From a virus, in the IMG/VR virus record IMGVR_UViG_3300028840_004184, positions 106,411 through 170,410 of that record: 64,000 nucleotides of DNA. One strand, written 5' to 3'. Under the pieces are notes generated by a model. That model ran no database searches, was not told the DNA's origin, and saw only the letters and a program-made list of their open reading frames with translations. A program made the translations under genes and the position numbers. Of this stretch, positions 96 to 42,733 are shown in pieces (position 1 is the stretch's first letter; the number at the start of each line of letters is the position of its first letter).

Positions 96-399
96 AAGTA
101 AGTGATCGGAGTATATAGACATGACGTTTCTTGAATGGCTTGGTGAAAAACAGAATCAGGATTTTGTTTTACTGTTGGCAGTTTTGTTTTTTGTGTTTGC
201 GGGTCCTCTCATGGTCGTTATTCGGAAGAACAAAAATGACCTGGATGACGAGTAAGTAACTTCTTATATAGCCGCAAGTAAGCGAGATCCTATATAGGAC
301 CCCGGCCATCATACTTCCTCCTGGCTCCGTAACCTGAATAGAGCCCACCTGCCAAAATGGCAGATCCCAGGCCAGAATGGCACCTGAGCCAAATCTGCA
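96..399. repeat. Repeat cassette 1
   Basis: RAGTAAGY-N7/8-TATATAG at 96-118, 250-271, 276-297; TGCCA-N3-TGGCA-like palindromes at 350-362, 370-382, 387-399. Confidence 0.8.
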
Positions 400-484
400 C
401 ACTGCGGATTATACTATTATCATAGTCCCTCACATAGAAAAAAAGTCAAGTGGAAAATAAAAAAAACTTAATTGAGTTTTTTGT

Positions 485-512
485 TTGACTATTTCCTTCT
501 ATGATTTATACT
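485..512 (+). promoter_or_regulatory. sigma70-type promoter TTGACT-N16-TATACT
   Basis: Near-consensus hexamers upstream of RBS AAGGAG and ORF 557. Confidence 0.8.
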
Positions 513-556
513 CTTAATGACGAGAAAAATAAGGTTAAACTTAAGGAGTATAAGTT

Positions 557-775
557 ATGTTGCCTGTTACAGTTACAAATCTCGGTACTGGAAAGACTTT
601 GACTTTTGTTGGAATATCACCGAAAAAGGCTGTTGTTTGTGCTTATGAACAATCAAGGGGTAATTTTAATACGTGGACCTATGATGAAAACAAGGCGATT
701 GTTTCAACTAGTGGTGCTACAGTATCTTGCGGTGATTTTTGCAGTATCATTGATAGGAGCAAGATGAAATCATGA
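557..775 (+). CDS. hypothetical protein
   Basis: ORF with AAGGAG RBS after promoter. Confidence 0.7.
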   Translation: MLPVTVTNLGTGKTLTFVGISPKKAVVCAYEQSRGNFNTWTYDENKAIVSTSGATVSCGDFCSIIDRSKMKS

Positions 776-958
776 ATCCTAATTTAGAAGGTATTATCGG
801 TTTTATTCCAATAAAAGATATTAAGCGTATTTTAACCAGTTATAATGTAGTATTTTATGATGATGATTTAAATTGGCAATTAAGGGCATTATTGTTAGAG
901 AAAATCAAAGACGGCACAATTCCCGATAGTGCTATCCATAATTTTCTTTGATTTATTC

Positions 959-986
959 TTGACTATTGTTTTCTATCTAGTATACT
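959..986 (+). promoter_or_regulatory. sigma70-type promoter TTGACT-N16-TATACT
   Basis: Near-consensus hexamers. Confidence 0.8.
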
Positions 987-1113
987 CTTAATAACAAAGA
1001 CAAGGATAAGTTTTTTCAGGAGTTTAGATTATGAAACAATGGTACGCCATAGAATATTATGATAAATCTGTTTGGGAAAAAATAGCTAGACAATCTATGG
1101 AGCAAAAAGGGGC

Positions 1114-1956
1114 TTGTGTCGGTTCATGGGGGGTATCGTAACAATGAATGCATCTGTTTTTAAAACAAGCCATTACAAACAATTCATTAATGGTAAACGT
1201 CCTAAAAAATGGTCTCCTACCATAAGTATCAATTATGGGAACGAAAAAACTAGACCACGTAAACGTGGCGGGTTTAAGGGAGAATCCCTTGATATTTGGT
1301 CAACCGATGTAACTAAAGGATGTGACAATGGTTGTGTCGAATGCTATGCTGCAAAAATGTCGGCTATGGCTATGCGTAACTTTGGTTGTGTCAAAACCGT
1401 TAAGCTTATTGGTAAACCTAAGGGGAATCCTTTTATATGGACGGCGGGACAAGGGGATATACCTAAGTGTATTATCGATAGCAAGATAGGGGTTATCGTA
1501 ACGGTTGATCCTATGCGGGAAAAATCCTTTGTCGATAATTCTATCAAGGCTGTATTGTCGGTACCACCTAGGCAAGTTTTGATCGGTTTTCGGGTATATC
1601 CTAAAAATATGGTCTCAATAGCTAGATGCTTGAAGCTTGCAAAGTATTTTCGAGCAAAGGGTTACAAGGGCATCTTTCATATGATTGTCCGGATAAACTC
1701 TTTAGAAATGGCTAGCAGGCTTGATTCTATCATATGCCCTAAAGGAAAAGTCAACCGTAAAATCTTCTATGAAGATAACAAAATTCCCGGTCTAGGCCTA
1801 GCTTGTGGGTCAAAGGGTAACGGCACTTGTGCCGATTGCATGTTTTGTTTTAACTATCATAATGCTACGCATAGGGTTGGAACATCTAGCGATCCTCTAA
1901 GATACCCTAAACATCTTGTGTCGGAATTCAAAAGAGTTGGATGGATAAAGTCTTAG
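1114..1956 (+). CDS. radical SAM-like (CxxxCxxC) protein; start probably 1144
   Basis: GCDNGCVECYA matches CxxxCxxC; second Cys cluster CGSKGNGTCADCMFC near the C-terminus. Confidence 0.55.
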   Translation: MCRFMGGIVTMNASVFKTSHYKQFINGKRPKKWSPTISINYGNEKTRPRKRGGFKGESLDIWSTDVTKGCDNGCVECYAAKMSAMAMRNFGCVKTVKLIGKPKGNPFIWTAGQGDIPKCIIDSKIGVIVTVDPMREKSFVDNSIKAVLSVPPRQVLIGFRVYPKNMVSIARCLKLAKYFRAKGYKGIFHMIVRINSLEMASRLDSIICPKGKVNRKIFYEDNKIPGLGLACGSKGNGTCADCMFCFNYHNATHRVGTSSDPLRYPKHLVSEFKRVGWIKS

Positions 1957-2162
1957 ACGCCGACGGGCTAATAATAAGGAAAAATAACCATGATGGAAAT
2001 TATAAAAATCCTTTGTTTGTTTATAGCAATTTTGTTTACTATATCATGTTTGTTTCGTGCCCATGCTAAGAATGATATTGCATTCCATAACATGGTTATG
2101 ATGAGTATAGGATGGACGGGATTTATTTATTTGCAATTTATTTACAAATAATGATTTTTGAT

Positions 2163-2190
2163 TTGACTATCCGAATATGTTGAATATACT
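2163..2190 (+). promoter_or_regulatory. sigma70-type promoter TTGACT-N16-TATACT
   Basis: Near-consensus hexamers upstream of ORF 2226. Confidence 0.8.
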
Positions 2191-2225
2191 TTTATAACTA
2201 AGTCACATTTAAGGAGTTACGAAGC

Positions 2226-2639
2226 ATGGAATTGATCAATACTCCAGCCGATCAAATCTTTGAAACGGTTGCCGATTATGAAAAGGCAAAAGGTAATTTC
2301 AAAACCCTGAAAAGTGATATTGAAGTCTTTGAAAAGGCTTTGATTGAACAGGCGGGTGAAGGAAAAAGAGACTTTGTTTTTCCTGATGGAATTCTCGTTA
2401 TCCCCGAAAAAGAAAGGTCTGGAGATAGCCCAGCATACAAGGCTATGTTTGAAGCTATTAAGGAGCGTATAAACGACGGCTCTATATGGACGGATAGCAA
2501 AGACGACGTAAGGCTATGGCTTGAAAATCTTTGGAATGATAAAAGAGGAAACAAGTATAAAAGCCGGAAACCCAAGATAAAAAAGGAAATCGCATCTAAG
2601 AGCAAAAGAAAAGCCAAGAAAATGGCATCTGCGAGTTAA
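2226..2639 (+). CDS. hypothetical protein with basic C-terminal tail
   Basis: ORF with AAGGAG RBS. Confidence 0.7.
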   Translation: MELINTPADQIFETVADYEKAKGNFKTLKSDIEVFEKALIEQAGEGKRDFVFPDGILVIPEKERSGDSPAYKAMFEAIKERINDGSIWTDSKDDVRLWLENLWNDKRGNKYKSRKPKIKKEIASKSKRKAKKMASAS

Positions 2640-2695
2640 ATAGATCTCCTCTAACCTCCTTGTCATCGCCGGTTTACATCGGGTAGACCGGTCAA

Positions 2696-2730
2696 GAGAC
2701 CGGGCGAAAGCCCGGTCTCATTTTTTATTT
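2696..2730 (+). terminator. intrinsic terminator
   Basis: GAGACCGGGC-GAAA-GCCCGGTCTC followed by T-tract. Confidence 0.85.
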
Positions 2731-2740
2731 AAAAACAAGC

Positions 2741-2768
2741 TTGACGTTTCCGTTTCATGGGATATAAT
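2741..2768 (+). promoter_or_regulatory. sigma70-type promoter TTGACG-N16-TATAAT
   Basis: Near-consensus hexamers directly after terminator. Confidence 0.8.
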
Positions 2769-2814
2769 ATACATAACAAGGCAATAAAAGGTTAGTTATT
2801 AAGGAGTTAAGGAT

Positions 2815-3231
2815 ATGTCAAGAGATAATGTCTATGGTTTCTGGGCGGGAAATCTTAAGCTTGATAATAGCAATTCTGGTAAATCTTTGGTTGTTTCCGA
2901 CGGAAAAAACAATTCTATAAGGGTTATCAGAACACAACAGGGTTTGTTAATTGACAATCTTCAAGGTATAGTCAAGGGCTCAAAGGCGGTCATAGACTCT
3001 ATGGAATTTCTTAGGGCTAAGCCTGTTACGGAGCAAAAGAAAGCGGGATTAAGGATTGACATCAAACTATTAGAGAAACAAGCCAATCAAATTGGTATAA
3101 TGCATCAAGAGATGAAAAACGGTCTTTCTGAAAATGATGATGATATGCTTGAAGGGTTATTAAACTTTGTAACTAGTGCTCTATTCCAGCTTAAGGAAAA
3201 TGGGGCTGTAACCCTTATTGTAGCTGATTAA
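2815..3231 (+). CDS. hypothetical protein
   Basis: ORF with RBS; C-terminal RIDIKLLEKQ...MLEGLL resembles NIDTKLLSRQ...LLSGIL of ORF 4104. Confidence 0.7.
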   Translation: MSRDNVYGFWAGNLKLDNSNSGKSLVVSDGKNNSIRVIRTQQGLLIDNLQGIVKGSKAVIDSMEFLRAKPVTEQKKAGLRIDIKLLEKQANQIGIMHQEMKNGLSENDDDMLEGLLNFVTSALFQLKENGAVTLIVAD

Positions 3232-4103
3232 GGAGAAAAAGAAAAATGAGATATAAAACGTCTAATACAAAAGAAGCTAAGTATGTCCGACGACATAACG
3301 TCTATCGGTGTATTTGTGGCCGAAAAAAGATTATGCCTTTCAGAACAAAGGTTTTTGAAATGATATGGTGTCCTAGGTGTAAAAAGAAGACTCTTCATGA
3401 AACGCCATAAAAATCAATGGTACAAGGTATTATGGAGAAGAATACATCGGAATATCCGTATTATATACCTTAAAATAAACAAAAAAAGATACAATGAACT
3501 ACTTAAAGAAAGACGGGGAATCGCTTGCAAGGTTATCTTAACCCATAAGGAGGAAAAAGAGTTAAGGAGGATTAATATTTTGTTAGGTAATGGCCCCTTA
3601 TACATATTTTCAAAAAAGGAAATACAGGATGCGTTGCGAAAGATGTAAACGACATATAGAGAATGATAAGAATAGGGAAAAAGAAAGAATCTGGTCAAAC
3701 ATAGCTGAATTGACAAACGTGTTAATGTGTCAAGCGGCGTCAATACCTACTTCTTATGGAGAGAAGAGTTATAAAGAAGTTAAGGACCTTATTTATCAAC
3801 AGATTAAGGATATTGTACTAAGAAATGATCAAGAGACTTTGAAGCATTGTTTTAAGGAAGAAGTATAATATGCTAATCCCACAACTGATTATAAAAATAA
3901 GCCTTGCGGAGTTATCAATAGGTAAAAATGATTCTTTTGATGGGCAATACGAAACAGCGAGAGTTTTAGAGGCTTTTGCAGAAAAAATAAGGAAAGAAGG
4001 TATACCCGAAGTTTTAGCAGATATAAAAGATAATAAAGATGGAAGAACCGTAGGCTTTGCATATCTTCATTGTTAAATGTATTAGGTTATGGAGTAAAGA
4101 ATT

Positions 4104-4493
4104 GTGAAAACTTTTAACATAGATACAAAACTATTATCTAGACAATTAAACCTAATAGGACAATTAATCAATACCCTACCAGATGATCATTTCAAGGAAA
4201 GGGATACGGAATTGTTATCTGGTATCCTCGATATGTTTTGTTCTATTGAAGCAAGCATTATGCGGGATAATGGGGTTATGCTTGTTGAACATAAGGAATT
4301 AACAGAAAAGCAAGGGGTTACGGAGCAAGAAAAAACATATTTCATAAAAATACAACAAGAACTAGTATACACAAACAAAGAAACAAATAATAAAAAAGAA
4401 GCAATAGAACATGCAAGGCGAGATATGATCGAAAGGTTACAAAGGGGGGAAATGGACAATTCTATTTTCCACATCATTGAAGTATCATCGTAA
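4104..4493 (+). CDS. hypothetical protein
   Basis: ORF with GGAG RBS, GTG start. Confidence 0.65.
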   Translation: MKTFNIDTKLLSRQLNLIGQLINTLPDDHFKERDTELLSGILDMFCSIEASIMRDNGVMLVEHKELTEKQGVTEQEKTYFIKIQQELVYTNKETNNKKEAIEHARRDMIERLQRGEMDNSIFHIIEVSS

Positions 4494-4639
4494 CAGGGGA
4501 AACAACGGGATTCGGTAGTTTTAAACTAGGTTCATTGTCAACATTATATAAGCCCCTTGTAAATGTACATTAATCCTCGAAGCAAGCGGGATTTTAACGA
4601 AAGGTATCGATAATGCGTGATTAATTCTGAAAAACTGAT

Positions 4640-4667
4640 TTGACTTTTCTTAAGGGCAGGGTATAAT
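4640..4667 (+). promoter_or_regulatory. sigma70-type promoter TTGACT-N16-TATAAT
   Basis: Near-consensus hexamers. Confidence 0.8.
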
Positions 4668-4673
4668 AAAAGC

Positions 4674-4835
4674 AGAGAAGAGTAGTAGTGAGTAGCTTAA
4701 CTGGGGGACGCGTACCTGACTTACTATAACAAAAGTTAAGCCTTCTCTTTAACTGGGTGATGACGAAAGTCAATATTTCCGGACTCATGATAGTTTGCCG
4801 GAAAAGCCCCTCATGGAAATTGCATGGGGGGGACA
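4674..4835 (+). ncRNA. candidate structured ncRNA or leader RNA
   Basis: Starts at predicted TSS; helices 4674-4680/4742-4748 and 4695-4702/4734-4741, crossing helix 4686-4693/4719-4726, GAAA tetraloop hairpin and two more hairpins; no + strand ORF in the track. Confidence 0.5.
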
Positions 4836-4867
4836 CCCTATTTATTTTTAGGTTAAGGAGTTAGGGA

Positions 4868-5065
4868 TTGACTAATTTTAAGCTTAAACTTAAACGCGTA
4901 TTCGCGGGAAGGTATATAACTCATAGTCGCGATTTTATCATTAACAAAGATAAAGACGGGTTGTGGAAAGTCATACCTACGAAAAGCCCGTTGATGCATA
5001 TCCTAGAGGCCGAGACCTTAGGTTTAGTCCGGGCTTATTATGAACAGCATGGAACATTTTACTAG
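4868..5065 (+). CDS. hypothetical protein
   Basis: ORF with AAGGAG RBS, TTG start. Confidence 0.6.
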   Translation: MTNFKLKLKRVFAGRYITHSRDFIINKDKDGLWKVIPTKSPLMHILEAETLGLVRAYYEQHGTFY

Positions 5066-5074
5066 GAGGTTTTA

Positions 5075-5518
5075 ATGGGCTGGAGTTTTTGTTTTGCACA
5101 CACAAAAAGAAAGATGCTTATTGAAGACTTGTGTCGTAACTGGTCTTATACGGGTTATAGAGGGACCCTCTTAACGATTAGAGTAATAGCCCATTGTTAT
5201 CGCGGAAATCCCGGTAACGGGATATTATGGAGCGTACAGGAGCGATATAATGAGAAGACGGGGGAAATCGAAGATAGGATGATCCGTTGTGATAAGATGC
5301 ATTATAGTCGTTTCGATGGATGTTGGGGCTATAAGCCTATGTGTGAAAGGGAAGGTCCCTATTATTATTCGTGTCCTCAAAGGTATTTAGATATGACTCC
5401 TAAGGAAATTAATCCAGGATTTAATCCATCATGGAGAAATACGGTTGAAGGACTCCATAACATGAAGAAAACAACCAGAAGTTTAAAAAAACTAAATAAA
5501 AGGATTGCGGTGTCATAA
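5075..5518 (+). CDS. DUF6927-like protein
   Basis: MGW start and WGYKPMCEREGPYYYSCP...WR motif, recalled from a phage/plasmid family. Confidence 0.5.
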   Translation: MGWSFCFAHTKRKMLIEDLCRNWSYTGYRGTLLTIRVIAHCYRGNPGNGILWSVQERYNEKTGEIEDRMIRCDKMHYSRFDGCWGYKPMCEREGPYYYSCPQRYLDMTPKEINPGFNPSWRNTVEGLHNMKKTTRSLKKLNKRIAVS

Positions 5519-5539
5519 CTCCATTGTTTTCCTCCAATT

Positions 5540-5570
5540 AGGGCCGGAATTTTTCCGGCCCTTTTTTATT
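5540..5570 (+). terminator. intrinsic terminator
   Basis: AGGGCCGGAA/TTCCGGCCCT hairpin followed by T-tract. Confidence 0.85.
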
Positions 5571-5577
5571 AAAATGT

Positions 5578-5606
5578 TTGACAATGGGCAAAGCCCATGA
5601 TATACT
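5578..5606 (+). promoter_or_regulatory. sigma70-type promoter TTGACA-N17-TATACT
   Basis: Near-consensus hexamers; spacer holds inverted repeat ATGGGC-AAA-GCCCAT. Confidence 0.8.
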
Positions 5607-5647
5607 CTTAATAGTTAAGAAAAACTAAGCTTTAAGGAGCTAAAATC

Positions 5648-5917
5648 ATGGCAAGGACCATCACACTAAAGTATAGTGGTCGCTGTAAAGATTGCGGTGC
5701 TTTTCTTCCAGCCGGTTCACGGGCTAAGTATTATGGACGTGGACGTATCTATGGGATCGGTTGCCATAGTAAGAAAAACAAAACTGCTTATGAACAAGGT
5801 GATAGATCCCCCGGAGCGATAGCAAGTCATTTTGATCGTACAGGAGTATATAGCTATGATGGGCGGAAAATAGGCTCTACTTGTGGGTGTGAGGATTATC
5901 CTTGTTGCGGTCATTAA
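5648..5917 (+). CDS. Cys-rich phage protein
   Basis: CKDCG and C-terminal CGCEDYPCCGH motif; AAGGAG RBS. Confidence 0.7.
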   Translation: MARTITLKYSGRCKDCGAFLPAGSRAKYYGRGRIYGIGCHSKKNKTAYEQGDRSPGAIASHFDRTGVYSYDGRKIGSTCGCEDYPCCGH

Positions 5918-6296
5918 CTCTTAAGGAGCATATAATGATTTTCAAAAATATCATCCATGCAAATTTAGGCATTATACTTGCAAGGGAATCTAAGAAGGCG
6001 AGAGGGGAAAGGCATTACTGCCCAGATTGCGGGAAGGAACTAATCATTGATGATGGGGTAGCTTATTGTCTTATGGAGGAGGGTGGTTGTGGATATTCGT
6101 TTGACCCTAATTATAAAAGGAATATAGGATAATGACTCTTAAGAAAACGCTTGAAGAGAAAAGGGAAGCTTTAGCAAAACGGGATATGGAAATATTAGAT
6201 GGTGAATCTTTGTTCCATATTTTCTTGCATGGATGTACCGGATATAATAATATGTCTGATGAAGAGGTAGAAGAATTGTATCTGATGTTTTTCAGC

Positions 6297-6472
6297 GAGT
6301 AAGTGAAAACCGTATATAGGTTAAGAGTAAGTGATTTCTGTATATAGAGGGATCGGCAAGTAAGTATCTCTTGTATATAGAGACGTAGGAAAACGCCCCC
6401 ATGCCATATCGGCAGACCGGTACCGTCATTCTGGCAGTGTGCAGAATTGGCACATGTCACCCTATGGTAACA
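6297..6472. repeat. Repeat cassette 2
   Basis: RAGTAAGT-N8-TATATAG at 6297, 6325, 6358; TGCCA-N3-TGGCA-like at 6402, 6424, 6440; GTCACC-N4-GGTAAC at 6456-6471. Confidence 0.85.
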
Positions 6473-6662
6473 TAGGGGATTCCGATCAAGTGTATCATAT
6501 TTAATGAGACAATCAAGGAAAAAATAAAATTTTTTCGGCGGGGTGATTTGGTGTGAACAAAATTCTACACCGTCCTGCTATCTTCCCGGCTCTTTATTCC
6601 GGAGTTTCAAGTTTATTTATACTGGTAACTTTTCTTATCCAGTCTTTTGTTTTGTTATCTCT

Positions 6663-6742
6663 ATTATACTATATATCGACATACAATCAAGTAAAATTAA
6701 GATTAAATTTTCATTTGACTACATATTTTTATCGACTATAAT
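6663..6742. promoter_or_regulatory. divergent sigma70-type promoter pair
   Basis: - strand TTGATT-N16-TATAAT (6690-6663); + strand TTGACT-N16-TATAAT (6715-6742). Confidence 0.75.
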
Positions 6743-6786
6743 AATGGAAACGAAACAACAGGATAGAATCATAAGGAGTTAATAGT

Positions 6787-7710
6787 ATGAAAAAAACAAA
6801 GCTAAGCTTAACCGAAAAGAAGATAGCAGAAATGCTAACTGAAAATACAGGGACTCATTTTTTAGATTCCGGCGGGGCATATGGTCGAAACTGGGAAAGA
6901 AACCAGGGAAGGAATTTCAAAGCTGAAAATGAAACATCTTTTCGGGCTAGCAACGGCTATCTTGAAATAACGCATAATCTTTTTCACTGGTTATCGGAAC
7001 GGTTGGAATATTCTCCGGAATGGCAAAGAAGATTTTCTAGGTTTGCTAATAGAGAAGAGGAACAAAATAATTCTTGGTTTGAAACGGTTGATAATTTCCT
7101 AGGATACTTAAGAGAAAAGGGGCATGAACTAGGCGGGATATATGGGGAAGGTGAGCCCCTAACCGTTAATACTTATAACGGGGAAGATTTGCTTTCACAA
7201 ACAATTCAATATACTTATTTTACTTATAATGATTCGGAAGTAGTTATTGCTCTTTTCATTCATGGCGGTTGTGATGTTAGGGGGGGATATACAGCACCTA
7301 AATTTTTCACTGAAAATGGCAATTATTCCGAACTAGCTATATTAAATAATGCCGATGCTAGAATATACTGTCAAAACAAAAACGATCGTCATTCATGGTA
7401 TACTGATGATGGTTGTCATTTTTACGGGGATAATCAGGAACCGGATATAAACGGCTTTAGAAATAGCATGGAATTCATTGATTTTACTGATGATGAAAAT
7501 GATTATCCTTTTTCTATTGACAAGAATGAAAAGGGGGATATAATTAATGTATTCCATGAGGGGAAAATTATTGATTCACCTTTGAAATCATTCAAGGGTA
7601 TTCCTTTTAATGAGGTACCGATAGAAGAAAAACTAATTTTGCCTTTCGACGGGGAAACGGGAAAGGCTTTTTGTCCTATATGCGGGGAAGAATTGCTAGC
7701 CCATAGTTAA
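6787..7710 (+). CDS. conserved phage hypothetical protein (acidic, C-terminal CPICG)
   Basis: 307-aa ORF; motifs MLTENTG-HFLDSGGAYGRNWERNQ and IHGGCDVRGGYT. Confidence 0.75.
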   Translation: MKKTKLSLTEKKIAEMLTENTGTHFLDSGGAYGRNWERNQGRNFKAENETSFRASNGYLEITHNLFHWLSERLEYSPEWQRRFSRFANREEEQNNSWFETVDNFLGYLREKGHELGGIYGEGEPLTVNTYNGEDLLSQTIQYTYFTYNDSEVVIALFIHGGCDVRGGYTAPKFFTENGNYSELAILNNADARIYCQNKNDRHSWYTDDGCHFYGDNQEPDINGFRNSMEFIDFTDDENDYPFSIDKNEKGDIINVFHEGKIIDSPLKSFKGIPFNEVPIEEKLILPFDGETGKAFCPICGEELLAHS

Positions 7711-7762
7711 GTCTCAATTGCCGACGGGCTTAATAGGGGGGATTTTAAAAGGAAACGATAAA

Positions 7763-8233
7763 ATGAGCAATGAAGTTTTAGAAACAAGGGTAAAAGGGGT
7801 AAATAATGCTCATAAATACGGAAATGAACTATATCGTATTTTAGTAAAGGTTTTTAAGCCTTTCATAGGTCAAAAGGTTATCAAGAAAACAGGGGGATTA
7901 ATTCAGAAGGTACAAAGGGCTATTGATTCTCTTAATTTACCTTGTAGTGTACCTATACAAGTTTATAGAAATTCATTTAGTGATTATTCCCTTTCATATG
8001 TTGTTAAAACTTGTGAAACATTAAATCAAAGGGCCTATTATTATGAAGTAAGTATCTATATCGGGAACATAGAAAACGGAATCTTAAAAGATATTGATTA
8101 TCCTTTTCCTAATTTTAAAACAGATTATAAAGCGGAAACAATTAGAGAAAACAGGAAAATATATAAGGAACTGCAAGAAAAAGCGGATAAAGCAAAAAGC
8201 AATTTATTTCCTTTTGATACGTATGATAGATAG
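7763..8233 (+). CDS. hypothetical protein
   Basis: ORF; ATG at 7763 preceded by AAAGGA. Confidence 0.65.
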   Translation: MSNEVLETRVKGVNNAHKYGNELYRILVKVFKPFIGQKVIKKTGGLIQKVQRAIDSLNLPCSVPIQVYRNSFSDYSLSYVVKTCETLNQRAYYYEVSIYIGNIENGILKDIDYPFPNFKTDYKAETIRENRKIYKELQEKADKAKSNLFPFDTYDR

Positions 8234-8291
8234 CATGTCTAAATCTTAGTTTTTGATTTGACTTTTCTTTTCGCGGGGATATACTTAGATA

Positions 8292-8501
8292 ATGCCGACA
8301 TATGATTATCAATGTAAAAACTGTGGAAACACATTAGAGAAATTTCAAGGCATAACCGATAAGCCCCTTAAGAGGTGTCCTAGGTGCCGGAAAATGGCTC
8401 TTAAGCGAAAAATAGGACCGGGAAGTGGTTTTATATTCAGGGGGGAGCCGTTTTCAGCCAGTACTGAATATCTAGCAAAAAACAAGGATAAAAACAAATG
8501 A
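8292..8501 (+). CDS. FmdB-family zinc-ribbon protein
   Basis: MPTYDYQCKNCG...CPRC...GSGFIFRG; follows promoter 8258-8285 almost leaderless. Confidence 0.85.
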   Translation: MPTYDYQCKNCGNTLEKFQGITDKPLKRCPRCRKMALKRKIGPGSGFIFRGEPFSASTEYLAKNKDKNK

Positions 8502-8722
8502 GCAAAGAAAAGGAAACGTATCCTCTAGCTGATTATCATTCAATGGCAAATCGGGCCATTAGAACCGGCGATTTTAGAAAGCCTAAAAAAGGGGAGTGGT
8601 TTCTTAGTGGGGCGATACCAGAGGCATATAAAGCCCCTAATGATTTGTCTGTTGCATATTATATCATGAGACCCGTCAAGGCTAAAACTAAAACCGTATG
8701 GATTATTAAAGAATATTATTAA
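8498..8722 (+). CDS. hypothetical protein
   Basis: ORF overlapping previous stop. Confidence 0.65.
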   Translation: MSKEKETYPLADYHSMANRAIRTGDFRKPKKGEWFLSGAIPEAYKAPNDLSVAYYIMRPVKAKTKTVWIIKEYY

Positions 8723-8812
8723 TCTGTTGACAAAAAGAAAATCGGGGATATAATTAAATCAACAGGAACAAACCGCCGTTTACTTTTTCAGTTAAAGAGC
8801 AGGGGGTAACAA

Positions 8813-9055
8813 ATGACAAATACAAAGACTCTTAAGGCAGTGATTCAAAAAGAATTCCCGGAATTGACTGATCAATATTTTGATGCTCATGAATCAGATC
8901 TTTATGTTCAATGGGTGCCGGGATTAAGGCATTTTTTGCGGCATAACTTAGGCTTGCCAAGTATTCAAACATTTATGGATGATATAGACGGCTTAGCATG
9001 GCTTGACATTGCTTTTATGAATGATAATTTCTGGGATAGATTTAACTATCTGTAA
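8813..9055 (+). CDS. hypothetical protein
   Basis: ORF after promoter TTGACA-N16-TATAAT at 8727-8754. Confidence 0.65.
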   Translation: MTNTKTLKAVIQKEFPELTDQYFDAHESDLYVQWVPGLRHFLRHNLGLPSIQTFMDDIDGLAWLDIAFMNDNFWDRFNYL

Positions 9056-9130
9056 AATAAACCCCTTCTTTTCCTGTTGCTATAGGCGGGGGGATTTATC
9101 CCCCTGCCTAGGCTCTTAAGAGGAAACAAT

Positions 9131-9334
9131 ATGGATAAATATAATATTCAATGGAAAAATCGAATAATCAATAATCAACCTGGTATATCATTAAAAGAAA
9201 CTGGGTATTATTTTATTGATCATTATGGGTGTTGGCATAAAGTTAAGGTTATTGCTATAACCGATAGCAAAACAGCAAAAAATAAAATAGATGATGAATT
9301 TTATATGATAGGGGAATATCCGGAAAATTATTAA
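9131..9334 (+). CDS. hypothetical protein
   Basis: ORF with AGAGGA RBS. Confidence 0.55.
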   Translation: MDKYNIQWKNRIINNQPGISLKETGYYFIDHYGCWHKVKVIAITDSKTAKNKIDDEFYMIGEYPENY

Positions 9335-9412
9335 TTTTTCGTTGACAATATAAAACAACAGGGTATAATTGAGTATCGTAACAAAAGGAAGTTTTTTTAG
9401 GGGTCAAAAATT

Positions 9413-9628
9413 ATGAGTACAATCGGAAAAGTCATCATGGGTGCCGGTCGGGAAAAATCGTATACTTCCCCCACCTCCCCCCTCGTTTATCTCCGTCACG
9501 AGGTTGATTTGAACGGGGATTTTATGGAAGAATGGAAAAAGCTCGACGATACCACCAAAGAATGGTATCGAGCCGCCGCTCTGGCGGAAATGGAAGCAAA
9601 TAATATTCCTGTCCAGGGTAAAAAGTAA
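9413..9628 (+). CDS. hypothetical protein
   Basis: ORF after promoter TTGACA-N16-TATAAT at 9342-9369. Confidence 0.7.
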   Translation: MSTIGKVIMGAGREKSYTSPTSPLVYLRHEVDLNGDFMEEWKKLDDTTKEWYRAAALAEMEANNIPVQGKK

Positions 9629-9670
9629 AATTGTTGTAGTGGATTGTAAGCCCCACTAATTTCATGGATA

Positions 9671-9708
9671 AGCCCCGTTGTGGATCGGCCACGGCGGGGT
9701 TTTTTTAT
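9671..9708 (+). terminator. intrinsic terminator
   Basis: AGCCCCGTTGTGG/CCACGGCGGGGTT hairpin followed by T-tract. Confidence 0.8.
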
Positions 9709-9738
9709 TGCTATCTGGGGACCGGGGTAAAGCCCTGC

Positions 9739-9924
9739 GAGTAAGCGGTTTTAAGTTATATCGCGAGTAAGTAGTTTCCCTCTATAGGTGGCAAGTAAGC
9801 GGTTGTCCTATATAGGCACCCTGCCGGGGGGGTGTTACCGAGTGGTAACGTTACCGAATGGTGACGCTCAATGTTACCAAAATGTGACTTGTAGTCAAAT
9901 GGCGACATGTTACCGAAAAGTAAC
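9739..9924. repeat. Repeat cassette 3
   Basis: RAGTAAGY...TATATAG-like at 9739, 9765, 9793; five GTTACC-N4-GGTAAC-like palindromes at 9834, 9850, 9873, 9891, 9909. Confidence 0.9.
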
Positions 9925-9951
9925 ATAGGCAGATTTTAGGTATATGTTAGC

Positions 9952-10033
9952 ATTATACAATACAAAAGAAAAATCGTCAATATGAATTTTTTTTTATTAA
10001 GTTATTGACTATATTATTCCGACAATATATAAT
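9952..10033. promoter_or_regulatory. divergent sigma70-type promoter pair
   Basis: - strand TTGACG-N17-TATAAT (9980-9952) pointing into cassette 3; + strand TTGACT-N17-TATAAT (10005-10033). Confidence 0.8.
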
Positions 10034-10084
10034 AGTATTATGTTTTTTTGTTATTTGACAAATCATCTTTTAAGGAAAAGCATT

Positions 10085-10270
10085 ATGGCGAAAAAAGGAA
10101 AGGCTAGCAACAAAACGGAAATGCTTTGCAATGAATGTAACCATACTTTCAAACGTGTTATAGGTAAAAATACGTTTGAGGTTAGATGCCCTAAATGTAA
10201 AGGGTATGATACGGAACCAAGCGGTTACATATTGGTTGTGAATCCTTTACGTACCAACACAAGAGGATAA
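10085..10270 (+). CDS. small zinc-ribbon protein
   Basis: CNECN...CPKC; AAGGA RBS before ATG 10085. Confidence 0.65.
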   Translation: MAKKGKASNKTEMLCNECNHTFKRVIGKNTFEVRCPKCKGYDTEPSGYILVVNPLRTNTRG

Positions 10271-10427
10271 CATGGAAAAGACTAAACTCATTTTGTTACA
10301 AGAGGATATATCCTCTAGGTTAAGGCTCTTAAAAAGGTTTAACGGAAATCCTGATAGAATCAAAGAGTTATCCGAAAAAAACAAAGCCTTATCGGATCAA
10401 ATCAAACGTAAAGCCTAGCAACACAAA

Positions 10428-10466
10428 AATTTAGCCCCTAAAAAAATTTTTAGGGGCTAAATTATT
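10428..10466. terminator. palindromic (bidirectional) terminator-like hairpin
   Basis: AATTTAGCCCCTAAAAA/TTTTTAGGGGCTAAATT. Confidence 0.7.
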
Positions 10467-10664
10467 TTATCCTTCATTTTACCCGTTTATCGGTCGATAA
10501 TATATATTAGTCAAGGAAAATTAACAAAAGGGGTTAAAAATGAAACACTTAATCGATAAAGCAAAACTTTACAGTACTATCCCGGTTATCGCAATAGTTA
10601 TTTATATTTTTGCGAGAATAGCAATAACCCTTAGTACTGTAACCCGATAAAGGGGTTATCATAA

Positions 10665-10871
10665 ATGATGATTATCGAAGCTAAAATGCTAGTCTTGTCT
10701 AGCATTTTAGACGAAAACGTTTATCAGACTAGTGTTATATCATCATTAATTAATGATGAAACGCATATTAAACTTTTAGATATTTTTGAAAAACTACAAG
10801 ATACATATGGATTAGAAAAATCCATTAACTTTTTCCGTAAATATAGGGGAGAAAAGCCTTTAGATTTTTAA
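10665..10871 (+). CDS. hypothetical protein
   Basis: ORF; N-terminus IEAKMLVL resembles IEAKLLIL of ORF 12199. Confidence 0.6.
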   Translation: MMIIEAKMLVLSSILDENVYQTSVISSLINDETHIKLLDIFEKLQDTYGLEKSINFFRKYRGEKPLDF

Positions 10872-10880
10872 GGGGTTAAA

Positions 10881-11087
10881 ATGGCGAAAATTCCGGATAT
10901 GTCAAAATGGCCTAGTTTTCACGTTCCTATGAATCATCATAAAACTAGTGGAATAAAACCTTTAACCCCTAGACAAGAAAAACTTTTGCAACTAGTTAGA
11001 ATGTACCGAAAAGCAAAATCTAAAAACGTTAAATCAAGAATATTAGACAAGATACATCAGATTGAATTAAACCCCTTAAGAGATTAA
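10881..11087 (+). CDS. hypothetical protein
   Basis: ORF with AAGGGG RBS-like element. Confidence 0.6.
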   Translation: MAKIPDMSKWPSFHVPMNHHKTSGIKPLTPRQEKLLQLVRMYRKAKSKNVKSRILDKIHQIELNPLRD

Positions 11088-11303
11088 GGGGCTTTTGTCA
11101 TTATTGATTGAACATTGACAAATGATTTTCCTAATAAGGGGCTTTGTATGCTCAAAAATGACCGAAAAAGACGATTCAGGCGAAAAGCCTTCAATACCCT
11201 TATCAAGCTTAAGAATAGGCTTAAAGGGGTTATCAGGGGCTTTTGTGAAGGTTTATTTGATCAAGATGAAAGGGGTTATTTCATCAAATAAGGGGTTTCA
11301 AAA

Positions 11304-11513
11304 ATGGGAATAGTTATGAAAACATTTTGTACATCTAACAAAAAATCATTTCTTGGAAGAATAGAAAGATTATCCCTTGAACTAGAAAACCATTTCAAGA
11401 GGATAACCGTTATTCCAGATAAAAAGACTAGGATCAAGAAAAGGGATGAAATCAATTTTTTGACGGATTTTCTATATCGGGATATGAAATATAATCCTCT
11501 TGAAAATCACTAG
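11304..11513 (+). CDS. hypothetical protein
   Basis: ORF with AAGGGG RBS-like element. Confidence 0.55.
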   Translation: MGIVMKTFCTSNKKSFLGRIERLSLELENHFKRITVIPDKKTRIKKRDEINFLTDFLYRDMKYNPLENH

Positions 11514-11536
11514 CGAAAACTGTACCAAACAAATAG

Positions 11537-11569
11537 AAAACCCGGATTTATCCGGGTTTTTTATTTTTT
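11537..11569 (+). terminator. intrinsic terminator
   Basis: AAAACCCGGAT/ATCCGGGTTTT hairpin followed by T-tract. Confidence 0.85.
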
Positions 11570-11582
11570 ATATTGTTAATTA

Positions 11583-11600
11583 TTGGTATACCTTTTGCTA
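11583..11600 (+). promoter_or_regulatory. sigma54-type -24/-12 site
   Basis: TTGGTATACCTTTTGCTA is GG-N10-GC; similar sites on the - strand at 11511-11528 and 12740-12757. Confidence 0.5.
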
Positions 11601-11850
11601 TGCCCTAATCTATACCCTAAAATCTGGGATTCGTTTTGATACATGATTTTGATACGTTATTAGAGCCCCATATTTAGCCCCTATCGCATATTAACACCTA
11701 GGACGTATCTTAACCCTATTTTCTGGAGAATTCAATTTATACCTAATAAACCCCTAACAAAAAAAGAAAATAAATTTATTTTGTTTTTGATTTTTTATTT
11801 AGGTTAGGTATACTTAATAGACGATATAAAGGAATGAAGGGAAAAAGAAA

Positions 11851-12090
11851 ATGAATAGATTATCAGATGAAATTATTTTACGTGATAATGATCATTTTGA
11901 AGGGGAAATAATAAGGTATCCGATTGATTTCATGTTTGAAAACTTTGGACCTTATGAAACCCTTGACGGAAAAACGGTACCGATACAACAATATCGTTTT
12001 TATATGAATGTAGGTTGTACCGGTAACAAATGGCAAGCTTGCTATATTTGGGATATTAACTCTAGGCAATGGACATTAGGGGCTAATTAG
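11851..12090 (+). CDS. hypothetical protein
   Basis: ORF after promoter TTGATT-N16-TATACT at 11787-11814. Confidence 0.65.
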   Translation: MNRLSDEIILRDNDHFEGEIIRYPIDFMFENFGPYETLDGKTVPIQQYRFYMNVGCTGNKWQACYIWDINSRQWTLGAN

Positions 12091-12198
12091 ACAATCGATA
12101 GGAATAGGGGAGAATAGGGTTATAAAAGGAACTAGAAAGCCTTTGAATCCTGATAATTTCTAAGATCCTATTCCTAGTTTTTTATAAAAGGGGTTTTT

Positions 12199-12468
12199 GT
12201 GTTACGTCCTATCGAAGCAAAATTATTGATTCTCTATTGTATTATGTCTTTCGATGTTTTGCCTAATTTTACATCAAATCATTTTACTTTAGTCAATAAT
12301 AGATTTGCCTTATTGGAATCGGAATATAATAAACCGGTTGATGATTATCACACCGATAGATTAATCGATAAATATGCTGCCTATTATGAATATCCCGATT
12401 TGTTTGAAATAGGGGTAGAATACGATAGATTCGGGAATAGATGGTATACAGGAAAAGAGGATAAATAA
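12199..12468 (+). CDS. hypothetical protein
   Basis: ORF with GTG start. Confidence 0.6.
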   Translation: MLRPIEAKLLILYCIMSFDVLPNFTSNHFTLVNNRFALLESEYNKPVDDYHTDRLIDKYAAYYEYPDLFEIGVEYDRFGNRWYTGKEDK

Positions 12469-12650
12469 TGGTATACTTTAGAGAATTGAAAGGCGAAAAG
12501 CCTATTGAATATGATAATCAAAGATGGTTATATGTTCATGATATTAAAGAAGGAAAAAACACATATTTGCATCTAAACTGCGATTGTCAAGTTGATGAAG
12601 AGGGATATTGTCTTTTATGCGGTTGTCCTAGTCCAATAGTGATTAAATAA
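12468..12650 (+). CDS. small Cys-containing protein
   Basis: TAATG coupling, AGAGGA RBS. Confidence 0.6.
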   Translation: MVYFRELKGEKPIEYDNQRWLYVHDIKEGKNTYLHLNCDCQVDEEGYCLLCGCPSPIVIK

Positions 12651-12680
12651 AAAATACTCCTTTTCCCATTTCCTGATTTT

Positions 12681-12711
12681 AGCCCCTGGATTAAATCCAG
12701 GGGCTTTTTTT
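12681..12711 (+). terminator. intrinsic terminator ending the early block
   Basis: AGCCCCTGGATT/AATCCAGGGGCT hairpin followed by T-tract. Confidence 0.85.
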
Positions 12712-12786
12712 ATTGTCTAGTCATATCCTAATAATACCCTAGCAAAAAGCATACCAAACCACTAATAAAATTAAATTTATTTTTTG

Positions 12787-13046
12787 TCTTGACGTATTCC
12801 AATGCGTCAAGATGTTACCATATGGTAACGGTCATTTTGACATGTCAACCTGCCAGCTTGGCAGGGTACCCGGTTTTTTAATTTCCTGCCATTTTGACAC
12901 TGCCATTTTGGCAGCCGGGGGGGCCATCTATCAACGCCCCGCCTCGGCGTGAGCCGAGTTGCTCACCCAAGTTGTCAAAAATCGATGACCCCCCGGTTCA
13001 AAAAAGTTGCTCACCTAAGGGGGACACCCCCTTAAAACCCCCGGCT
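12787..13046. repeat. Repeat cassette 4 (inverted orientation) and GC-rich boundary region
   Basis: GTTACC-ATAT-GGTAAC at 12814-12829; TGYCA-N3-TGRCA-like at 12830, 12851, 12887, 12901; G/C runs; AGTTGCTCACC twice. Confidence 0.8.
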
Positions 13047-41087: not shown

Positions 41088-41400
41088 ATTTGTGTCCTTT
41101 TCAGTTATATCAGCTAAAATGATTTATTTGAACATTATTTTTTTTAAAAAAATTTTATGCTATAAAATTATGCTGATCCTATGCTTGTGTGTACCATTTA
41201 ATACGTAAAATATTTTTTACTTGACTTTTGGGTATTTTCTGGTATCACTATAATAGCCGCCGTGAGGCGGCCTAGGCTTAGCCATCGGCCAAGCCGTTAA
41301 GTCTAGATGTGCTCTTAACAAAAACTTCTCCATAACCTAAAAATATAGGGGGTAAAAAGAGCACATCAAAGTCTAGAAACCTAATCTAGGTTTATCAACT

Positions 41401-41486
41401 ATTATATCAAAGATTTTCCAAAAGTCAACAAAAAAAGTGAAATAATTTTATAAATTACTTGACTTTACGTATTATTATGATATAAT
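41401..41486. promoter_or_regulatory. divergent sigma70-type promoters at the strand switch
   Basis: - strand TTGACT-N16-TATAAT (41428-41401); + strand TTGACT-N16-TATAAT (41459-41486). Confidence 0.8.
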
Positions 41487-41565
41487 ACTATTGTTGACAG
41501 AGGGAAAGAACATATCGTTGATACACACATCTTAAATCTTCGTTTTATAATTCTGTCTTTTATTT

Positions 41566-41574
41566 TTAGTGTAT
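41566..41574 (+). promoter_or_regulatory. putative late promoter motif TTAGTGTAT
   Basis: Exact copies at 41566, 48907, 51399, 52725, 56002, 60471, each just upstream of a gene. Confidence 0.7.
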
Positions 41575-41617
41575 ATTTAATTTGGATATATACATTTTTA
41601 TTTTTTGAGGTAGGATT

Positions 41618-42112: not shown

Positions 42113-42733
42113 TTGGTTAACGGTAGTGGTATTGCTGCCTGGCGTAGTAGTGAAGGTTTGTATAGTCAGACTAGTGGTGTTATAGATAATATTATACATC
42201 ATTATCTTATTATACAAAGAATAACAATTCCAGACATGGATGCTGAGGATATTGCACAAGAAATACGATTTAAGTGTATACAAGCCCTTCTATCACCCAA
42301 GTTTGACCCAGATAAAGTTGGGACATCTCCGTATAGTTTTTTACATCGTGTTATTCATAATCATGTTTATAATCTCAAGAGGGGTGTATGGACTGTAAAC
42401 AACCCACCGTGTGTCAGGTGTGAGTATTGGGATAAAGATGTTAGAAAATGCTTGGCACAAGTTAATCATTGTGATAAAATGTTAGCTTATCAAGATGATA
42501 TGCAGAAGAAGGCCGCGTTACGCACTCCTGTTGGGTTTGAGAAGGATTATGTGGAAAATCAAGCCTTCGAGGTTAGTTCTATAGATGACTATATTCTAGA
42601 TGACCATGTTATTAGTAGATTGCCCGAGAATCTACGCAGCTTTTATATTGATTTAAAAAAGGGGCTTGATATACCTCATCTTATACGTAAAGAATTGCGT
42701 CGTCGTATTATGAGAATTATTAAGGAGGATTAA
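42113..42733 (+). CDS. phage sigma-factor-like protein
   Basis: DAEDIAQEI...KFDP...YSFLHRVIHNHVYNLKR resembles sigma region 2; Cys insert; RLPENLR. Confidence 0.65.
   Translation: MVNGSGIAAWRSSEGLYSQTSGVIDNIIHHYLIIQRITIPDMDAEDIAQEIRFKCIQALLSPKFDPDKVGTSPYSFLHRVIHNHVYNLKRGVWTVNNPPCVRCEYWDKDVRKCLAQVNHCDKMLAYQDDMQKKAALRTPVGFEKDYVENQAFEVSSIDDYILDDHVISRLPENLRSFYIDLKKGLDIPHLIRKELRRRIMRIIKED

Follow-up and report, generated by a model that had tools for sequence, protein, structure and literature searches.

Conserved multi-part non-coding cassettes as candidate control and boundary modules in the early region of an uncultured phage family

We analysed a 64,000-nucleotide stretch of DNA (the window), the last 64 kb of the 170,410-bp IMG/VR virus record IMGVR_UViG_3300028840_004184, in which multi-part non-coding cassettes recur between small genes. 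Positions are those of the window unless the genome is named. Between about 78 kb and 119.4 kb of the genome (the latter being 13.0 kb of the window), the genes point rightward; from 13.0 kb to 41 kb of the window they point leftward, and then rightward again past 41 kb, where the sigma factor, terminase, portal and capsid genes are found. The first rightward block has the look of an early, host-takeover region, because it contains small ORFans, about 20 near-consensus sigma70 promoters, several intrinsic terminators, transfer RNA (tRNA) genes, and DUF932 and SprT-like genes. Cultured phages gave no match to this phage by megablast and none to its capsid protein, while its terminase is related to theirs only distantly (22-26% identity to Bacillus phages). 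A host assignment from a single match on a contig of a Hydrogenophaga metagenome-assembled genome was judged unreliable. The genome carries a 144-bp terminal repeat, sited at an arbitrary point, and four relatives carry terminal repeats of 44-127 bp that lie inside genes. From their siting, all of these repeats (44-144 bp) look like assembly overlaps and not true genome ends.

There are five cassettes in the genome, all in the early region and within 25 kb. Each is 250-450 bp long and is built of direct repeat units, a G or C run, palindromes of two classes and a leftward promoter. The five paralogous copies align in a single order of elements, with one copy inverted: in whole-sequence alignment, cassette 4 matches the others only as the reverse complement, with the element order kept, as its description as a mirror image had implied. 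A preliminary description of this DNA had proposed four homologous cassettes. Their homology, non-random nature and restriction to the early region hold, but the count is five, since cassette 0 lies at genome 94153-94440, 12.2 kb before the window. It has two variant units of the form AGTAAGC-N9-TATAGGG, the palindrome CTGTCGAAATGACAG and a perfect rightward promoter. In addition, cassette 2 reaches 6742, taking in a back-to-back promoter pair with the geometry of cassette 3. The elements of cassettes 1 to 4, together with the terminators before two of them, are as follows.

Cassette 1, 97-118, 251-271 and 277-297, plus strand: three units, exact pattern matches
Cassette 1, 300-304: C-run
Cassette 1, 348-362 and 369-382: palindromes CTGCCAAAATGGCAG and GGCCAGAATGGCAC, respectively
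Cassette 1, 386-400: quasi-palindrome, shared in inverted form with 6434-6457 (repeat I7)
Cassette 1, 422-449, minus strand: leftward promoter-like site, -35 TTGACT (449-444) inside AGTCAAG, weak -10
Cassette 1, 452-512, plus strand: A/T tract and rightward promoter TTGACT-16-TATACT of the next operon
Cassette 2, 6298-6319, 6326-6347 and 6359-6380, plus strand: three units
Cassette 2, 6396-6400: C-run
Cassette 2, 6401-6415: palindrome ATGCCATATCGGCAG
Cassette 2, 6419-6424: palindrome GGTACC
Cassette 2, 6423-6437: palindrome CCGTCATTCTGGCAG
Cassette 2, 6440-6452: palindrome TGCAGAATTGGCA
Cassette 2, 6454-6473: palindrome ATGTCACCCTATGGTAACAT
Cassette 2, 6489-6516, minus strand: proximal leftward promoter TTGATT-16-TACACT
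Cassette 2, 6663-6742: back-to-back promoters, leftward TTGATT-16-TATAAT (6690-6663) and rightward TTGACT-16-TATAAT (6715-6742)
Before cassette 3, 9670-9702, plus strand: intrinsic terminator of the preceding operon
Cassette 3, 9740-9815, plus strand: three units, at 9740 (imperfect), 9766 (TCTATAG variant) and 9794 (exact)
Cassette 3, 9826-9832: G-run
Cassette 3, 9834 to 9926: array of GTTACC-N4-GGTAAC at 9834, 9850, 9873 and 9909, with a hybrid site at about 9889-9904
Cassette 3, 9952-10033: leftward promoter TTGACG-17-TATAAT (9980-9952), shared A/T tract, rightward promoter TTGACT-17-TATAAT (10005-10033)
Before cassette 4, 12681-12705, plus strand: intrinsic terminator of the last plus-strand early operon
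Cassette 4 (mirror image), 12760-13015, minus strand: begins with the A/T tract in window order
Cassette 4, 12789-12794: -35 TTGACG inside the inverted repeat CTTGACG..CGTCAAG
Cassette 4, 12814-12829: palindrome GTTACCATATGGTAAC
Cassette 4, 12850-12864: palindrome CTGCCAGCTTGGCAG
Cassette 4, 12865-12870: palindrome GGTACC
Cassette 4, 12886-12899 and 12900-12914: palindromes CTGCCATTTTGACA and CTGCCATTTTGGCAG, respectively
Cassette 4, 12917-12923: G-run
Cassette 4, 12957 and 13005: two copies of AGTTGCTCACC, with AAGTTGTCAA at 12969-12978

Both motif classes occur far above chance and almost only in the cassettes, rather than being spread evenly over the DNA. The unit pattern AGTAAGY-N7/8-TATATAG has 7 exact matches in the window (at 97, 251, 277, 6298, 6326, 6359 and 9794), all on the plus strand between 97 and 9815, while 100 shuffles of the window gave none. 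The whole 170-kb genome likewise holds 7 forward matches, with 0 in reverse and 0 in the reversed control, and the looser pattern AGTAAG-N8-11-TATAG occurs 11 times on the plus strand and never on the minus strand of the 170 kb. The exact-pattern scan thus agrees with the earlier count of three units in each of cassettes 1 to 3, two of those in cassette 3 (at 9740 and 9766) being imperfect. The core of the unit is variable, widely so within one genome, and its spacing differs by 1 bp between copies. The genome has exactly two copies of AGTTGCTCACC, both of them in cassette 4, and the proposed likeness of this sequence to the AGTAAG unit turned out to be weak. A solo unit-like match at genome 74995 was set aside, as it lies inside a real minus-strand gene and is probably due to chance. 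The motif T(T/G)(A/G)NCAACTT is present in three copies immediately before the units of cassette 0 (genome 94153-94196) and, inverted, as the AAGTTGTCAA that separates the two AGTTGCTCACC copies of cassette 4 (12957-13015).

Among the palindromes, TGYCA-N3-TGRCA has 4 matches in the window against 0.22 expected, all of them in cassettes 1 and 4. For GTTACC-N4-GGTAAC, allowing at most 2 mismatches, the count is 7 where 1.6 are expected, and cassettes 2 to 4 contain 6 of these; the remaining one, at 3911 and with 2 mismatches, is the sole palindrome of either class outside the cassettes. The tandem array at 9834-9924, taken before as five palindromes of one kind, is indeed an array, but comprises four GTTACC-type sites plus one hybrid site. 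The G or C runs are present in cassettes 1 to 4 as originally reported, and so are the A/T tracts. The palindromes begin 0-35 bp beyond the -10 of the leftward promoter, and in this phage the distance between that -10 and the nearest palindrome is 0-28 bp. CTGCCAAAATGGCAG and GTTACCGAGTGGTAAC were taken as candidate protein-binding sequences. The type I-F repeat hairpin of clustered regularly interspaced short palindromic repeats (CRISPR) and the sites of matS, parS, LexA and NtrC are presumably unrelated, since none of them appears to fit the spacing or flanks.

The A/T tract lies upstream of the leftward promoter, between it and the rightward one. The leftward promoter is clearest in cassette 3, where TTGACG-17-TATAAT (9980-9952) matches 11 of the 12 consensus positions, as had been noted. 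Cassette 1 has the good -35 that was described, together with a poor -10. In cassette 2, the site first proposed (6516-6489) is only a moderate match, and that account lacks a stronger leftward promoter at 6690-6663, which is paired back to back with the rightward one at 6715-6742. The -35 falls within (A/C)GTCAAG(G) in cassettes 1 to 4 as well as in relatives. With about 20 strong rightward sigma70 promoters in the early region, the rightward promoter that follows a cassette is not special in itself. Intrinsic terminators precede cassettes 3 and 4, and are not found before cassettes 1 and 2. The -10 TATAAT of the rightward promoter of cassette 3 (10028-10033) ends just 6 nucleotides before the ATG at 10040, so the first gene after this cassette may either be leaderless or begin further on, at an ATG behind AAGGAAAAG.

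The predicted leftward transcript has no conserved open reading frame (ORF). The small ORFs on it were rejected, because their ATGTTACC starts belong to the palindrome and the one in cassette 2 stops after 3 codons. The cassettes had been described as having no credible ORF, and they are otherwise non-coding, but cassette 1 contains a plausible one of 44 codons, MTFLEWLGEKQNQDFVLLLAVLFFVFAGPLMVVIRKNKNDLDDE, on the plus strand at 121-255. It would encode a plausible membrane peptide with one hydrophobic helix; it has a GGAG 9 nucleotides upstream, inside unit 1, and its stop codon is inside unit 2.

About 30 uncultured relatives of 150-180 kb were obtained from terminase and capsid searches. 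Their capsid proteins are 53-69% identical to that of this phage, and the closest relative by terminase has 47% identity. Two of the relatives (G1 and G2) were read whole and the other 27 around palindrome matches and at some contig ends, so that the cassette counts are lower bounds. In the 27 relatives, TGCCA-N3-TGGCA has 34 matches as against 8 in the reversed control, and about two thirds of these matches are in non-coding stretches with the cassette layout of this phage. That layout begins with one to four units TAGAAGYG-N10-CCYTTAC, often followed by TATA (G1, G003, G004, G010 and G012), continues with a G/C-rich stretch and one to three CTGCCA-N3-TGGCAG palindromes, often in pairs 14-39 bp apart (mostly 18-31), and ends with a leftward near-consensus sigma70 promoter and an A-tract, after which most have the promoter from which the next operon is read rightward. 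Seen from the leftward promoter, the unit homologues of these five relatives lie past the palindromes. The leftward promoters are TTGACT-17-TATACT in G012, TTGACA-16-TATAAT in G009, TTGACA-17-TATACT in G008 and G029, TTGACT-16-TATTAT in G010 and TTGACT-16-TATACT in G1. Since it is near-consensus and conserved in the relatives, though weak in two of the cassettes here, the leftward promoter is probably a real feature. The terminase relative G2 has two perfect GTTACC-N4-GGTAAC sites.

One alignment of the G1 units to the AGTAAG units implies opposite orientations in the two phages. With the alternative alignment, in which AGTAAGTG is paired with TAGAAGTG and GTATATA with GTATATATA, all the phages share the same orientation and order; the similarities are short, and we prefer this single-orientation alignment on grounds of parsimony. 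The unit homologues of G1 lack any TATA box. In G012, there are three units, each 100-150 nucleotides behind its own consensus promoter, one of them without palindromes. In the G+C-rich relatives G004, G009 and G005, the CTGCCA..TGGCAG hairpin is longer and a T-run comes after it, just before the promoter, which suggests that the palindrome can double as a terminator in some of them.

The way in which the palindromes vary bears on what might read them. Their arm sequence is kept across genomes of 38-57% G+C while the 3-nucleotide centre varies. We surveyed arm mismatches in 47 CTGCCA-N3-TGGCAG-like sites, found in 26 of the 27 cassette regions examined and oriented by early-gene direction: 23 mismatches are non-wobble, 15 are wobble on the leftward RNA and 11 are wobble on the rightward RNA, with no strand bias. 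Given the kept arms, the varying centre and the lack of strand-biased wobble, the palindromes show the pattern of duplex-DNA sites for sequence-specific dimeric proteins and not that of an RNA helix. The earlier proposal of arrays for DNA-binding proteins plus dedicated transcription is thus borne out in so far as the palindromes are site-like and the leftward promoter signals are present and conserved.

A candidate for such a protein is encoded in three relatives. In G1, G010 and G029, the first gene after the cassette encodes a conserved protein of 63-72 amino acids with an N-terminal RGRGRPA motif. The genes for these candidates are at L137:14124-14342, L287:2141-2344 and L268:1035-1226. 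Against Pfam, it matches RHH_1 below threshold (E 0.03 and 0.19, both in relatives), and its top matches to PDB profiles are led by VapB26 (E 0.08), with CopG at E 0.96. Among the ten best Foldseek matches, at E of about 1, nine are Arc-repressor chains and one is the CopG-family antitoxin CopASO; the model itself has a predicted local distance difference test score (pLDDT) of 70 and begins with a predicted helix in place of a strand. An Arc/CopG-like ribbon-helix-helix fold is thus weakly supported by the profile and structure matches. In the relatives, the DUF932 or SprT genes come after this gene, as they do downstream of cassette 0, and the region of cassette 0 is therefore syntenic with the relatives. 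The SprT-like and DUF932 genes here are side by side (genome 95745-97232; L235:15745-17232). Such genes are typical of the leading regions of conjugative plasmids, and the same pair follows cassettes in relatives. The 307-amino-acid gene after cassette 2 belongs to the widespread family phrog_11344, whose 80 loci have no cassettes.

From the anatomy, statistics, copy number, family-wide conservation and promoter quality given above, we infer protein binding, regulation, a leftward RNA and a role for the repeats. As the related phages have this layout too, the module is probably a shared control and boundary element of a kind known in T5 and T4 phages. More specifically, the comparison across the family points to promoter-operator-boundary modules between early operons, and we tentatively favour a reading, which may well prove wrong, in which the cassettes are operator-controlled boundary modules that coordinate and insulate successive early operons and emit a short antisense transcript. 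Each module would combine a sigma70 promoter pair, usually back to back, which shares an A/T-rich upstream tract and one member of which starts the next operon; an array of 13-16-bp palindromes downstream of the leftward promoter; and, beyond the palindromes, between one and three short direct repeats. The palindromes would be operators for sequence-specific dimeric DNA-binding proteins, for which the putative ribbon-helix-helix protein of the relatives is a candidate, and a dimer bound just past the -10 would block the leftward promoter. Operator occupancy would gate this promoter in every cassette simultaneously, perhaps along with its divergent partner, such that the five modules could be switched in concert by one or two proteins. 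When on, the leftward promoter would give rise to a short non-coding transcript that crosses the palindromes and repeats and runs head-on into the end of the upstream operon; this transcription would insulate the early units from each other or act as a timed switch. What the proposal explains least is the role of the repeat units.

Several observations weigh against these operator-controlled modules. Tandem or paired AGTAAG units are absent from the 27 relatives, in which GTTAC-N6-GTAAC is likewise not enriched, and the similarities that link the AGTAAG and TAGAAG units are short and allow alignment in both orientations. Cassettes 1 and 4 have a poor -10 in their leftward promoter, and in cassette 0 this promoter is in a different place. 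Only 5 of the approximately 20 early promoters carry a cassette, and hence the cassettes cannot be the sole early control. As for the protein, the fold matches of the 63-72-amino-acid candidate are weak (all at E of 0.03 or above), no homologue of it was detected in this phage (best E 1.2), and no helix-turn-helix (HTH) or ParB domain is among the 25 Pfam families that were listed for 150 ORFs of its early and middle regions.

Two known kinds of regulatory system offer parallels to the proposed modules. At the immI locus of P22, the ribbon-helix-helix repressors Arc and Mnt act with the promoters Pant and Pmnt and the sar antisense RNA. It shares with the cassettes palindromic operators at close, opposed promoters, a short antisense transcript and, in the relatives, an Arc-like candidate. 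It differs in being a single locus of a temperate phage, whereas there are five dispersed copies in this virulent-type phage, in which palindromic predicted operators do lie at promoters but no ribbon-helix-helix gene was detected, next to them or elsewhere. KorA and KorB of RK2 and omega of pSM19035 govern dispersed operator regulons of plasmids, with two short operator classes spread over several promoter regions and one or two proteins co-regulating the operons. Here, the element belongs to a phage and not a plasmid, no KorB/ParB or omega homologue was found, and binding is predicted.

Other explanations were weighed as well. The preliminary description had suggested staged DNA entry, segregation, host-factor titration or primer-RNA origins, and the evidence singles out none of these. 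The cassettes could instead be recombination seams of the PeSL type, at which terminator, hairpin and promoter modules persist because recombination shuffles the early ORFans, and their conservation would then come from concerted evolution and from promoter and terminator function, with no dedicated protein. We consider this unlikely as the explanation, although it is compatible with the operator-controlled modules. It would account for the genes between the cassettes being small ORFans almost without homologues in the relatives while the layout is kept, for the inverted cassette and the sub-element inverted between cassettes 1 and 2 (repeat I7), for the terminator-like hairpins and T-runs just before the promoter in G004, G009 and G005, and for contigs of several relatives that break in or near cassettes; however, exact arms kept at 53-69% capsid identity are hard to obtain by within-genome gene conversion alone, and there are far fewer cassettes than early promoters. 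The PeSL cassettes of T4-type phages (PMC2839356, PMC4122927) are similar in that a large virulent phage has its small variable early genes flanked by repeated modules of hairpin and early promoter, but they are simple terminator-promoter pairs present at most units, whereas the cassettes here are fewer and multi-part, and recombination at them is putative. It is also improbable that the cassettes are multi-copy genes for a non-coding RNA, the product being a leftward RNA of 150-300 nucleotides with hairpins and 3' units that would act in trans or, in cis, as antisense to the 3' end of the early mRNA that lies upstream. Across the relatives, promoter, palindromes and units do keep one order and direction family-wide, and the three G012 units behind their own promoters, one without palindromes, would suit such genes; yet the unit arrays fold no better than shuffles on either strand (z-scores -0.01 to -1.4), wobble shows no strand bias, no clear leftward terminator is seen, the cassettes have no match in Rfam 15 at the gathering score, and the unit cores vary widely in one genome.

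An origin of replication can be modelled on the four iterons of the lambda ori, on oriF and oriG of T4 or on the primary origin of T7: the TATATA repeats would unwind, the palindromes would bind an initiator, and the leftward promoter would activate replication or prime it. The cassettes do have tandem repeats, a promoter, an A/T tract and a palindrome array (with five adjacent sites at 9834-9924), and T4 has several early origins. We nevertheless hold origins to be quite unlikely. Iteron-type origins such as lambda ori, P4 ori/crr and oriC come in one or two copies per genome, with an initiator or other replication gene at the site or next to it, but here five copies lie within 25 kb with ORFans as neighbours; no replication initiator, helicase-loader, primase or ParB gene and no cluster of DnaA boxes is found nearby; the DNA polymerase gene is at genome 33.9 kb, about 70 kb from the cassettes; the A/T tract is between the promoters, upstream and not downstream of the leftward one; and switches in strand composition track gene direction only. 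Pausing of DNA entry or membrane anchoring, as at the injection stop of T5 first-step transfer, strikes us as very unlikely. In pattern, the nearest published parallel to the cassettes comes from untranslated repeat regions 1-3 in the first-step-transfer DNA of T5, among them the injection stop signal (Davison, bioRxiv 10.1101/866236). There, too, element order is kept in the family while the intervening genes are not, and one block recurs inverted a few kb away, as does the mirror-image cassette in the conserved-order repeat and palindrome blocks described here; the cassettes also lie among anti-defence-type early genes (DUF932 and SprT). On the other hand, there is no sequence similarity, the paired DnaA boxes of the inverted T5 blocks were not found in any cassette, and each block here has a defined divergent promoter pair. 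The T5 blocks lie in a long terminal repeat that enters the cell first, and the terminal repeats here are probably assembly overlaps; five stops would be unprecedented, and the function of the T5 regions is itself unproven. A related and rather doubtful proposal is that a DNA-binding protein, from phage or host, reads CTGCCA-N3-TGGCAG at several early stations and, with the polar units, stages a moving genome, RNA polymerase or replication fork. If true, this would be a previously undescribed, family-wide staging system, a multi-stop version of the presumed single injection stop of T5. Finally, the units (22-23 bp, ending in TATAG) could be promoters for a polymerase or sigma factor of the phage; they resemble T7 promoters in length, in their strict strand polarity and in being arranged in tandem, and one sigma-factor gene is present at 42113-42733. 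No single-subunit polymerase was found, though control genomes likewise gave no match. The spacing differs by 1 bp between units and does not suit a -35/-10 pair, the part that varies is the core, which such enzymes read, the G1 homologues have no TATA box, the units face non-coding DNA, and the likely late promoter is a different motif, TAGTGTATA, which fits the sigma factor. We regard this possibility as highly improbable and have rejected it.

Other features of the genome and its relatives touch on the same region. TAGTGTATA, usually with TT before it and T after it, precedes many plus-strand structural genes (for example at 41567, 48908, 51400 and 56003), and is likely to be the late promoter of the phage sigma factor. 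A 50-nucleotide early promoter module, made up of TTGACA-16-TATAAT, a conserved GGGG(A/T)ATAATT discriminator region and an upstream A/T block, occurs three times (7498-7547, 8708-8757 and 9323-9372). Where the leftward middle and rightward late genes diverge (41100-41600), there are 16 small palindromes within 120 bp (about 41138-41257), two strong rightward promoters and a structured G+C-rich insert. In G1, a 38-bp unit is repeated exactly, inverted and 1.1 kb apart (L137:12478-12516 and L137:13583-13671), bracketing a divergent promoter pair, a small gene and two tRNA genes, and the pair could allow inversion of the segment; near the contig end of the same relative, GGTGAGCAAGT, noted with the T(T/G)(A/G)NCAACTT motif, lies at the -35 of a leftward promoter. 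The contigs of G1, G2, G005, G010, G022 and G028 have an end no more than about 2.5 kb from a cassette-type palindrome (about 1 kb at most in G1, G005 and G028), which may mean that cassettes break assemblies or that the early region is near real or repeated genome ends. Scans of IMG/VR and of a metagenome collection with the tandem-unit pattern returned only chance coding matches and eukaryote-like satellites.

The early regions of large virulent phages consist mostly of unreadable ORFans, and outside T4, T5 and T7 the order and shut-off of their expression are poorly known. With the operator-controlled modules that we tentatively favour, a family of uncultured 150-180-kb phages gains a conserved non-coding module with a putative operator, CTGCCA-N3-TGGCAG, an antisense promoter and, in some relatives, a candidate repressor. 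These would give a handle on the regulator, the early transcription units and the seams at which genes may be shuffled, and the module may serve as an independent example beside the unexplained repeat regions of T5.

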